Assembly: GCA_943348815.1 (NCBI GenBank) | Contig: CALQYT010000001.1 | Location: 12,488 to 76,487, forward strand | Length of the DNA stretch: 64,000 nucleotides | Source of the DNA: Candidatus Nomurabacteria bacterium | GTDB taxonomy: Bacteria > Patescibacteriota > Minisyncoccia > Phycocordibacterales > SBAW01 | Reading direction: 5' to 3' | Shown: piece by piece, positions 6,504 to 8,245 of the stretch | Numbering within the stretch: the first letter of the stretch is position 1 | How the letters are laid out: every line of letters begins with the position of its first letter | The notes under the pieces: model-generated | The model's database searches: none | What the model saw: the letters and a program-made list of their open reading frames with translations, nothing else | Told to the model about the DNA's origin: nothing | Made by a program: the position numbers and the translations under genes

Positions 6504-6710
6504 ATGTCCCAAACTTCCAAAACATTAGGCAATAACATCAAACGCTTACGGCTTCGCCGTAAAATGTCGCAAGGCGACATTTGTCGAGCAATTAGCATGG
6601 ATAGGAGCTATATGAGCGCGATTGAGGGTGGTAAAGTAAATGTTACCTTAGTGGTTTTAGAAAAGCTCGCCAAAGCGCTTGATGTTTCAGTTGATGAGCT
6701 TTTGAAATAA
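6504..6710 (+). CDS. XRE-family helix-turn-helix transcriptional regulator (68 aa)
   Basis: LGNNIKRLRLRRKMSQGDICRAISMDRSYMSAIEGGKVNVTLVVLEKLAKAL is a canonical Cro/C1 HTH. Confidence 0.8.
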   Translation: MSQTSKTLGNNIKRLRLRRKMSQGDICRAISMDRSYMSAIEGGKVNVTLVVLEKLAKALDVSVDELLK

Positions 6711-6711
6711 T

Positions 6712-7083
6712 ATGGAAAAAAATTTAAAAACAATTATTTACGATTTAGAAACTTCCCTCCTAAAACCAGAGATTAGGTCGTCGACTAGTGATTTGGATTT
6801 GCTATTAGCCGACGATTTTAGAGAATTTGGAAGTTCGGGTGAAATTTATGACAAAAAACTTATACTTGAAAGGTTGCCAAAAGATACACAAACTTCACCT
6901 GTTGAGTTTTTGGTTTCTGATTTTCAAATTCAAGAGTTAGGTGAAAATATTGTTTTGGCAACCTTTAAGACAGACAAAACCTTGCCTGATAAAAGTCATG
7001 TTGGCGCTTTGAGAACTTCAATATGGAGAAAAAATAATAACAGTTGGCAAATGATTTTTCATCAAGGAACACCGACAAAATAA
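6712..7083 (+). CDS. NTF2-like/DUF4440-like domain protein
   Basis: LLADDFREFGSSGEIYDK...W...FHQGT pattern, recognised by memory only. AT-rich codon usage. Confidence 0.35.
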   Translation: MEKNLKTIIYDLETSLLKPEIRSSTSDLDLLLADDFREFGSSGEIYDKKLILERLPKDTQTSPVEFLVSDFQIQELGENIVLATFKTDKTLPDKSHVGALRTSIWRKNNNSWQMIFHQGTPTK

Positions 7084-7087
7084 TTCT

Positions 7088-8245
7088 ATGGAAAATTTTG
7101 AATTCAAAAAATATAGAAGTGATTTAGCAAAAGAAATTCGCAAAGAACCTGACAGGACAAAAAGGCGAGAAATTTTAGCGACTGCAAAAGGAAGCGAAGA
7201 ATACCAGGAAGCTAAAAGATTAAAAGAGCAAGAATTTTCTACAAAACAAGAAAACAAAGCTCAAATTGAGCGACTTTTGCAGTACGCCCAAGAACATTAT
7301 GAGGAGTACACAGCTTTTGACCCCGAAACAGTTGAATTGCTAAATGTTATTGGCACTAACAGAGAAAAATTTGAAAATGAAACTTTACCAAATGTATCTG
7401 ATGAATTGGTAGATAAAGTTATCGGCTTTTTGGAAGGAAACAGAGACGAAGAAATTGTCACTCTTTTAAAAAGAGCAAATTTTGACTATGAAAGCTTGCT
7501 TGCAAGCGAAGATGATGAGCAAACAAAAGCGCGTGCGCTTTTGGACACAATCCTAAAAGCTCAAAGTTACGATGAAGCGGTAGCAGAAAATAAGGATAAA
7601 GAAATTGATTTTTCTGGTTTTGAAAATGATCCTGATATTCCCGATGCCAAAGAATTTATTTATAGAGTTTTCGGCGCGGAATTATTGCAGAAATGTTTAG
7701 TGTCAAAAGTGAAATACGCTCCCGATAGAATAAATGTGCAAATAAATGGAACTGATTATATGTTGCCAGTTGATGTCTATACGGAATGGGAAAAGCAAAT
7801 GCCAGAAGTTAAAAGCCGAAAATTCCGCGCCGAATCATTTGTACTTTGGAATACTGACCCAAATTTCAGTAAAAAATTCATTTCCACTCCAATTCATTTT
7901 TATAGTTTTCACGGCGAGGAACCAGATAAATTAGATTATCTTGGACATGTTTCGGCAGAGGAAAAAATGAGGCAATACAAATTAGGAACGGTAGCGCATG
8001 AAGTTGCTCATCATGTTTACGATTATTTAATGGACGCAGATAAACGGAAGGAGTGGAAAGAATTAGTTGATAGAACGAGTGCGATAACGGATTATGCAAA
8101 ATCATATGCCGAACATAAATTGAAATATGATGAATTTTTTACTGAAGCAGTTAGATTAAAAGTAACTTCGCCAGACCGTCTAAAAACTGACTTTCCAGAA
8201 ATCGATCAGTTTTTGACGGATCATTTTCCAGAGATTAAGATATAA
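7088..8245 (+). CDS. hypothetical protein with HExxH (HEVAH) metallopeptidase-like motif
   Basis: Charged, coiled-coil-like N-terminus, and a ...GTVAHEVAHHVYDY... motif near the C-terminus. AT-rich. Confidence 0.5.
   Translation: MENFEFKKYRSDLAKEIRKEPDRTKRREILATAKGSEEYQEAKRLKEQEFSTKQENKAQIERLLQYAQEHYEEYTAFDPETVELLNVIGTNREKFENETLPNVSDELVDKVIGFLEGNRDEEIVTLLKRANFDYESLLASEDDEQTKARALLDTILKAQSYDEAVAENKDKEIDFSGFENDPDIPDAKEFIYRVFGAELLQKCLVSKVKYAPDRINVQINGTDYMLPVDVYTEWEKQMPEVKSRKFRAESFVLWNTDPNFSKKFISTPIHFYSFHGEEPDKLDYLGHVSAEEKMRQYKLGTVAHEVAHHVYDYLMDADKRKEWKELVDRTSAITDYAKSYAEHKLKYDEFFTEAVRLKVTSPDRLKTDFPEIDQFLTDHFPEIKI

Follow-up and report, generated by a model that had tools for sequence, protein, structure and literature searches.

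Small XRE-type helix-turn-helix (HTH) proteins share operons with HExxH proteins on mobile elements in the ImmR/ImmA, DdrO/IrrE and CapH/CapP systems, and ImmR is cleaved in its C-terminal part. Another group of HExxH proteases includes the anthrax lethal factor (LF), the Pro-Pro endopeptidases (PPEPs) and MtfA. The concept of variable-cargo elements at tRNA sites is represented by tycheposons, integron cassettes and mobile insertion cassettes (bioRxiv 10.1101/2020.12.28.424599). In this work we analyzed a 64,000-nt window from a Candidatus Nomurabacteria assembly (GCA_943348815.1, contig CALQYT010000001.1, positions 12,488-76,487), to which all coordinates refer unless another locus is named. 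It contains an HTH gene, a DUF4440 gene and a gene for a 385-aa HExxH protein, carried together by a probable integrative element. The host belongs to the candidate phyla radiation (CPR, Patescibacteria), which makes up a large share of bacterial diversity; CPR proteins are mostly unannotated and their gene exchange is poorly understood.

The best explanation of the locus is that the three genes form the variable cargo slot of a ~3.8-kb site-specific integrative element at the 3' end of a tRNA-Ser gene (Table 1). An earlier note on this DNA had listed three plus-strand open reading frames (ORFs) of 68, 123 and 385 aa, the last with a HEVAH motif, and all of them are present where it placed them. 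They are co-oriented and separated by gaps of 1 nt (68-aa/123-aa) and 4 nt (123-aa/385-aa), and thus look like a single operon. The note had also called them cargo of the element, which agrees with their position: they are bracketed by 189-nt inverted repeats and lie beside a large serine recombinase gene at tRNA-Ser.

Table 1. Features of the element, of its cargo and of the 385-aa protein in the window, and example loci of the element family in other genomes (positions within each locus)
Feature	Position	Strand	Remarks
tRNA-Ser(TGA)	4523..4610	+	ARAGORN; Rfam tRNA 54.6 bits
Repeat arm A, 120 nt, outer inverted copy	4605..4724	+	100% complementary to 6126-6245
Large serine recombinase, 520-aa ORF	4542..6104	-	Resolvase + Recombinase + Zn_ribbon_recom
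Internal full unit A'B, 304 nt, reverse complement of V (B'+A)	6126..6429	-	
XRE/Cro-C1 HTH gene, 68 aa	6504-6710	+	First cargo gene
DUF4440/SnoaL-like (NTF2-fold) gene, 123 aa	6712-7083	+	Pfam PF14534
HExxH protein gene, 385 aa	7088-8245	+	
N-terminal module, aa 1-50	7088-7237	+	Profile search, hhalign, DNA identity
Helical middle region, aa ~51-167	7238-7588	+	AlphaFold2 helices, pLDDT 85-96
Catalytic domain, aa ~170-385	7595-8245	+	Predicted LF/PPEP/MtfA-like zincin; HEVAH 7997-8011
Putative third zinc ligand E349	8132-8134	+	hhalign to LF E735
Repeat arm B', 189 nt, two GC-rich hairpins, right end	8252..8440	+	99% complementary to 6241-6429
Example locus L031	254-4544		
Example locus L046	508-4811		
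Example locus L098	3418-7822		
Example locus L127	3024-7147		

The recombinase exceeded the Pfam cut-offs for all its domains (Resolvase 9.8e-20, Recombinase 7.5e-15, Zn_ribbon_recom 3.8e-07) and matched the PHROG 95 integrase at 1.2e-77. The 3' end of tRNA-Ser (..CTCCGCCA) forms the left, attL-like junction of the element. The internal unit A'B reads, in inverted orientation, as an attP-like junction (..CAAACACCGCC/AAAATTCGG.., the slash marking the junction), and the right junction (..CAAACACCGCC/TGAAGAC) is attR-like. The tRNA/A (ctccctCCGCCaaaatt), B'/A (caaacaCCGCCaaaatt) and B'/host (caaacaCCGCCtgaagac) junctions of the window have a CCGCC(A) core in common. Arm B has a core of twin GC-rich hairpins, CCCGCCCGCA..TGCGGGCGGG and GGCAGGGCGAA..TTCGCCCTGCC, present in both of its copies (6241-6429 and 8252-8440). 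When folded as RNA, B' gives a pair of strong hairpins at -65.9 kcal/mol (z -3.7), which may terminate cargo transcription as well. An Rfam scan of 4000-9500 revealed the tRNA only, and the repeats match no RNA family. The three cargo genes are situated in a low-GC patch (0.35-0.41 vs about 0.5).

It should be mentioned that the conserved part of the recombinase ORF ends at about aa 460 without a stop codon; the ORF continues through arm A, which codes for the recombinase tail (about aa 461-500), and terminates within the tRNA-Ser gene. The inverted copy A' produces a mirror ORF (6039-6296, plus strand) with the same 40 residues. Such read-through recurs in other loci, where the recombinase ORFs have 500-549 aa.

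The same arrangement is repeated in a near-identical 55-kb contig and in a 2176-nt contig that ends symmetrically inside both B arms, while the junction of the recombinase gene, A', B and the HTH gene recurs in a fragment of a strain differing at 8 positions. The possibility that the inverted repeats are an assembly artefact was rejected, since this last junction comes from a separate assembly and the architecture is found in metagenome-assembled genomes (MAGs) of many unrelated studies.

An exact search for the twin-hairpin core in the GTDB species genomes revealed 110 stretches from many Patescibacteria classes, and the core copies were often paired, inverted and located 1.7-2.5 kb apart. 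Beside homologous genes in other genomes, B-like sequences are better conserved than the coding DNA and have indels that are not multiples of three; the B core, which these indels mark as non-coding, is near-invariant where the neighbouring coding DNA is only ~78% identical. The core also occurs as single "orphan" copies located 3' of genes (examples of B are L001 16-201, L004 9195-9367 and L018 7304-7469). Exact B cores were, in addition, detected in MAGs labelled as Gammaproteobacteria, Bacteroidales, Ignavibacteria, Methylococcaceae, Woesearchaeota and Cryosericum (L024, L027, L044, L049, L059, L068, L074, L075, L083 and L094), which is explained either by contaminating CPR contigs in the bins or by a broader range of hosts.

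A census of the element combined nhmmer searches for the 304-nt unit, phmmer searches for the recombinase and ARAGORN; contiguous B'+A units were present in 38 nhmmer hits in other genomes. Ten loci showed the complete order tRNA-Ser, A, recombinase, A'B, cargo, B', and about 9 others showed it in part. A-like arms lay on both sides of the recombinase in 10 other loci, and the junction between the tRNA-Ser 3' end and A was present in at least eight other genomes. Recombinases of the tRNA-Ser-linked copies, from other CPR species, were 82-96% identical to that of the window. Altogether the family is spread over dozens of Patescibacteria species (loci L021-L130), with a cargo slot of 1.4-2.9 kb. 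Distant variants with recombinases 49-57% identical to that of the window are located at other tRNAs, such as tRNA-Gln in L088; in the loci L088 (45-3861), L126 (4730-4962) and L057 the recombinases are 27-57% identical and lie by tRNA-Gln, tRNA-Leu and tRNA-Arg. These variants suggest target switching within the element family.

The 3' end of the recombinase gene points toward tRNA-Ser in 11 of 11 loci, the window counted, and of 18 oriented cassettes, 16 have their cargo transcribed away from the recombinase. These fixed orientations argue against frequent inversion and lend no support to an inversion switch for the cargo. In L095 (48-2547) both cargo genes face the recombinase side, unlike the 16 others, which could represent an inverted state of the segment between B and B' or merely another orientation of the cargo.

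In total, 34 complete cassettes bounded by B and B' held 70 ORFs belonging to 51 clusters. Pfam domains encoded in them include nucleases (AccI, EcoRI, R.Pab1, Mrr) and methylases (D12, N6_N4, Eco57I) as well as asparagine synthase, D-Ala-D-Ala ligase, Ltp, Vut_1, MFS, LD-carboxypeptidase and NUDIX. Restriction-modification systems, transporters and cell-wall enzymes are among this unrelated cargo. The protease of the window was found in none of the 34; in a further locus of the genome scan (L077, from the genome of homologue P0009) the protease gene has a B' arm behind it. A gene for a ~70-aa XRE HTH protein related to that of the window (E 1e-8 to 1e-14) opens eight of the 34 cassettes, and behind it lie genes for restriction-modification, an MFS transporter, kinase-like proteins and others. 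The recurrence of the HTH gene ahead of such variable cargo indicates that there are many interchangeable passengers, of which the protease is one.

The exact pattern predicted for the empty attB (..TCCCTCCGCC/TGAAGAC..) was not found in JGI metagenomes. No phage or plasmid vehicle of the element was identified: the B core is absent from IMG/VR viral contigs, no phage homologue of the protease was found, and plasmid recombinases are less than 30% identical to that of the window. A literature search revealed no description of the element.

We then consider the 385-aa protein. No significant match to it was found in Pfam, NCBIfam, PHROGs, PADLOC or PDB sequences, and its family profile likewise retrieved nothing from PDB sequences. 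The statement that HEVAH (residues 304-308) is its only recognisable feature therefore holds for these five libraries. The motif is nevertheless not a chance occurrence, since across 20 homologues, down to 35% identity, ten residues are invariant: H304, E305, H308, W323, Y336, Y340, E349, F351, E353 and R356. A loss of HExxH among homologues, which the earlier note had named as a refutation, was thus not observed. In total 55 close relatives were detected, and all named ones come from Patescibacteria/Parcubacteria and are labelled "hypothetical". Judged from these sequences, the protease family is so far confined to CPR.

An AlphaFold2 model based on the family alignment (pLDDT 92.8, pTM 0.85) has helices at residues 2-167; the domain behind them (174-385) is alpha/beta plus helical and has a zincin fold. 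The description of a long charged, coiled-coil region ahead of the motif was roughly right, in that the model is all-helical up to residue 167. Fold neighbours of the model, with their scores in brackets, were PPEP-2 (10.1), the PA-binding N-terminal domain of LF (9.6), PPEP-3 (9.4), the LF-like N-domains of Certhrax (9.2) and edema factor (8.7), the LF chain containing the catalytic domain (8.5) and MtfA (8.1).

Alignment of the family profile by hhalign with LF residues 686-776, whose sequence was confirmed to match the PDB exactly, gave a probability of 92%, an E-value of 6.6e-7 and 36% identity over 73 columns. In this alignment HEVAH stands opposite the HEFGH of LF (H686/E687/H690) and DEFFTEAVRL opposite AEFFAEAFRL, so that E349 is paired with E735, the third zinc ligand of LF. 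When only the catalytic domain was used as a profile, 66 clusters were retrieved, including proteins of 242-316 aa that do not have the long N-terminal region. All these short relatives retain HExxH and E-x-F-x-E-A-V-R-L, their N-terminal regions differ, and they carry neither Pfam domains nor signal peptides. With an invariant motif, a modelled zincin fold and a third ligand in place, the protein is very probably a zinc metallopeptidase, as the earlier note had supposed. By sequence and model it represents a new family inside the LF-like fold group and outside the existing Pfam families.

The 68-aa protein matches Pfam HTH_31 (1.4e-12) and HTH_3 (1.8e-11) above the cut-offs and over the whole domain, and Pfam reveals nothing in it beyond the DNA-binding fold. 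Its best PADLOC match is the restriction-modification "Control_protein" (1.3e-15), with generic XRE models scoring similarly; the match to capH (1.1e-10) does not rise above generic XRE similarity. Since similar HTH proteins stand ahead of unrelated cargo in the sister cassettes, they appear to be a recurrent cassette-level regulator rather than a partner of the protease, and the 68-aa protein is probably the transcription regulator of its cassette.

The first 50 residues of the protease constitute a module of their own (consensus MENFExxKYRxDLAKEIxxEPDxxKRREIL..TEEYQEAKRL). The weakest matches of the first family search had only these ~50 N-terminal residues in common with the protease, while their C-termini were unrelated; they included the HExxH protein P0049/50, ANT(2'')-type nucleotidyltransferases (P0051-54) and a CCA-adding enzyme (P0055). 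An exhaustive search of 1.84 billion representatives with the 50-column profile found 146 clusters at E<=1e-3, 23 of them at <=1e-10; these counts come from the exhaustive search, as a word-index search with the same profile gave four fragments only. The module almost always occupies residues 1-50 of proteins that range from 47 to 1697 aa.

Among 113 module-bearing proteins scanned with Pfam the majority had no domain, and the partners found were methyltransferase, PALP, TPR, ResIII/DEAD/SNF2 helicase, PolyA_pol+HD, histidine phosphatase, MaoC, CheR and ART-PolyVal. Comparison of the protease family with P0050 by hhalign aligned residues 1-50 only (98%, 72% identity). The coding DNA of the module is 76-80% identical, from the start codon to near codon 46-49, across genes whose remainders are unrelated. 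Thus, the module is portable, has a sharp boundary at residue 50 and is shuffled at the DNA level. No description of the module or of the protease family was found in a literature search.

Module genes may be adjacent, as in L019 (also L020), where a CCA-adding enzyme (6001-7665) and a 1343-aa DEAH/HrpA-like helicase (7677-11708) both carry the module. P0050 itself (L018 5786-7469) is a module-bearing protein of 420 aa with its own HExxH motif (HEFSH); a 70-aa XRE HTH gene lies directly upstream of it and a B'-type arm follows. An HTH gene near-identical to this one opens the cassettes L059 and L076, ahead of a kinase-like 392-aa protein. With only 32% identity, the P0050-locus HTH was rejected as an instance of the cassette regulator of the window. 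Many ~2-kb contigs had also raised the possibility that module-bearing proteins are general cassette cargo, which was rejected as well: the P0200 loci have no V/B repeats, and only one locus of the genome scan contained a module protein.

The cargo most likely provides an accessory zinc endopeptidase that acts in the cytoplasm through an LF-like active site and is placed under a C-protein-like regulator; the balance of the evidence is somewhat in favour of this function. By analogy with lethal factor, zinc would be held by H304, H308 and E349, water would be activated by E305, and the transition state would be stabilised by an invariant tyrosine, Y340 or Y336. The absence of a signal peptide suggests a cytoplasmic location. 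The catalytic domain would be joined to the helical region, with the first 50 residues acting as a portable docking or targeting module. The 68-aa XRE protein would be the cassette's own regulator, comparable to restriction-modification C proteins, setting expression after transfer and not serving as a substrate of the protease; the DUF4440 protein would be a co-transcribed accessory protein. In the simplest reading the carrier would be a circle of ~3.8 kb in which the recombinase segment and the cargo segment are kept apart by the 304-nt unit, present twice and in inverted orientation, and one of the two copies would have recombined with the 3' end of tRNA-Ser.

Several points weigh against this interpretation. 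Pfam ATLF (PF07737) and Peptidase_M90 do not match the protein or its homologues even at E<=10 (Peptidase_Mx was matched by one homologue at E 0.015), and with these curated models silent the homology rests on the fold and one profile alignment. The catalytic Tyr728 of LF falls in an alignment gap, where the invariant Y336/Y340 and the near-invariant Y347 are candidate counterparts. A promoter and terminator scan revealed no convincing promoter upstream of the 68-aa HTH gene, nor was a clear operator seen there. A docking role of the module is a guess, and neither PDB nor Pfam contains a relative of it. Finally, the 4-nt spacing between the DUF4440 and protease genes could mean a functional pair, which the proposed scheme leaves unexplained.

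Such a pair is the basis of the alternative in which the protease acts as an effector, either toxic or defensive, with the DUF4440 protein as its inhibitor or immunity protein and the HTH protein as the regulator of both. The DUF4440 assignment itself is firm (PF14534 6.1e-14, 52.8 bits vs a cut-off of 25.2, profile positions 3-107 of 107), and NTF2-fold immunity proteins occur in polymorphic toxin systems. The tight packing and common orientation of the three genes would fit, as would the defence cargo in which the sister cassettes are rich (several restriction-modification systems, Mrr, Ltp), the secreted toxins LF and PPEP among the nearest folds, and the presence of the N-terminal module on many enzyme domains, which resembles the constant N-terminal regions of polymorphic toxins. 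However, a DUF4440 gene is in none of the 34 sister cassettes, and neither such a gene nor another conserved small neighbour lies beside the protease in six other contexts, one of them with a 93% identical protease. Both a signal peptide and a known secretion domain are absent from the protease, PADLOC recognized neither the protease nor the DUF4440 protein, and the module is also carried by apparent housekeeping RNA enzymes (the CCA-adding enzyme and HrpA-like helicase). We therefore consider a toxin-immunity function unlikely.

Somewhat more doubtful is a role as a secreted or injected effector, in which the 50-residue module would be a CPR-specific export signal and the protease would act on the bacterium that hosts an epibiont. 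In at least 146 diverse enzyme families the module stands at the very N-terminus, which is consistent with this, and so is the extracellular location of LF and the PPEPs, the best-studied proteases among the closest structural relatives. A "polyvalent protein"-type ADP-ribosyltransferase is found among the partner domains, and a BFVD viral fold search gave weak matches only (E 4e-3 to 0.1), the best of them to polyvalent proteins and minor-capsid (injected) proteins. On the other hand, the module is highly charged and is modelled as packed structured helices, unlike Sec/Tat signals; the CCA-adding enzyme and HrpA-like helicase that carry it are normally intracellular; and neither secretion genes in the contexts examined nor, as mentioned above, a phage homologue of the protease were seen.

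The ImmR/ImmA-like switch proposed in the earlier note, in which the HTH protein represses the element and is cleaved by the HExxH protease to induce excision or transfer, is by now very improbable and largely refuted. The recombinase gene is indeed divergent from the XRE HTH gene, the HExxH protein is encoded in the HTH operon, P0050 is likewise encoded right behind an HTH gene, and one 93%-identical homologue lies beside a divergent LexA-type DNA-binding gene. However, the proposed profile check for DUF955/ImmA/IrrE gave no match: Peptidase_M78/DUF955 (PF06114) was not found at E<=1 for the 385-aa protein or at E<=10 for 20 homologues, NCBIfam, PHROGs and PADLOC yielded no M78-type match for the protein, and its predicted zincin subgroup differs from that of IrrE/ImmA. 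Nor is the HTH-HExxH pairing kept: an XRE HTH gene is adjacent to the protease gene in none of six other contexts (93% to 50% identity), whose neighbours are the LexA-type gene, DJ-1, DUF711, ORF6N, an unknown 212-aa gene and AAA_14/DUF4143. In elements whose recombinases are 82-96% identical both genes are missing, which means that the pair cannot serve as the core switch of the element. The same type of HTH protein precedes unrelated cargo, and at 68 aa it is a bare domain with no C-terminal part available for cleavage.

An identity other than a peptidase, namely a C-terminal HD-type phosphohydrolase or PD-(D/E)XK nuclease, is scarcely credible and was rejected: the weak Pfam/NCBIfam similarities of residues 282-382 to YfbR-like 5'-deoxynucleotidase (E 0.005; best homologue 3.3e-4) and PDDEXK_1 (E 0.046) fall short of the curated cut-offs in every case and disagree with both the fold and the invariant residues, the part of YfbR covered has no HD motif, the homologues have no invariant HD doublet, and the HExxH...ExxxE pattern aligns with the zinc site of LF.

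We thus return to an accessory intracellular endopeptidase carried as exchangeable cargo. The novelty of the locus lies in an unannotated protease family, a portable module and a carrier element more than in the HTH-HExxH pair. A family labelled "hypothetical" everywhere gains a predicted fold, a putative active site and a testable LF-like endopeptidase activity, and the analysis guards against a likely mis-annotation, in which an HTH plus HExxH pair on a mobile element is named ImmR/ImmA. The module may, as a guess, be a docking or targeting element for a partner common to many CPR enzymes, and its presence in at least 146 clusters offers a handle for finding a common partner or route in CPR cells. 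A broader and decidedly speculative idea is that it is a CPR-wide address tag sending at least 146 enzyme families to one destination, a cellular hub or an export/injection route, with the tagged genes traded among Patescibacteria by the serine-recombinase cassette. The element, if confirmed, would be a concrete vehicle of horizontal gene transfer across the CPR radiation and a compact, naturally modular serine-integrase system.

Just beyond the right end of the element, two genes on the minus strand encode proteins of 310 aa (8451-9383) and 174 aa (9400-9924), neither of which has a match in Pfam, NCBIfam, PHROGs or PADLOC; the N-terminus of the latter is Tat- or signal-like in appearance. 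The window also contains two small GIY-YIG-domain genes located by tRNA genes, one at 1711-2115 (minus strand) by tRNA-Arg 1639-1710 and the other at 4172-4522 (plus strand) by tRNA-Ser 4523-4610. Similar GIY-YIG genes are present in L018.

Comparison with described systems places the locus as follows. The ImmA/IrrE/CapP proteins with their ImmR/DdrO/CapH partners are alike in having a HExxH protein and a small XRE HTH protein in one operon on a mobile element, and the HTH protein of the window generically matches capH; the HExxH motif itself is common to all zincins and non-diagnostic. They differ in the M78 domain, the zincin subgroup, the conservation of the pairing and the cleavable C-terminal part of the HTH protein, and the element family of the window works with or without the HTH and protease genes. 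Restriction-modification C proteins are comparable with respect to the HTH protein, which scores best against "Control_protein" models, although generic XRE models score similarly, and is encoded first in the operon, an arrangement shared by the sister cassettes with restriction-modification cargo. Unlike in those systems, the downstream genes here and in several sister cassettes are not restriction-modification genes, and no C-box operator was identified.

With regard to the protease, LF and the PPEPs (MEROPS M34, Pfam ATLF) show the same succession of HExxH, ~41 residues and E-F-F-x-E-A-x-R-L, corresponding to H686/E687/H690/E735 of LF. The 385-aa protein escapes Pfam ATLF, has neither a signal peptide nor the other domains of LF, and possesses a CPR-specific N-terminal module and a helical region. 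MtfA (Mlc titration factor A, MEROPS M90) provides a precedent for an intracellular LF-like peptidase linked to regulation, although there is no match at the sequence level and the N-terminal architecture is different. Polymorphic toxins and the "polyvalent proteins" of phages and conjugative elements likewise combine a constant N-terminus with many unrelated enzymatic C-termini, as the module does at a sharp DNA-level boundary; in our case the module has only 50 residues and is also found on probable housekeeping RNA enzymes, and its genes were not seen to be linked with secretion, immunity or packaging genes.

The carrier most resembles tycheposons, integron cassettes and mobile insertion cassettes in having a dedicated recombinase, a tRNA-gene site and a small, highly variable cargo slot. 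In contrast to them, the element of the window is so far found almost only in CPR, its recombinase is a large serine recombinase, and recombinase and cargo each lie between near-perfect inverted repeats (120 and 189 nt) that together form an inverted attP-like unit.

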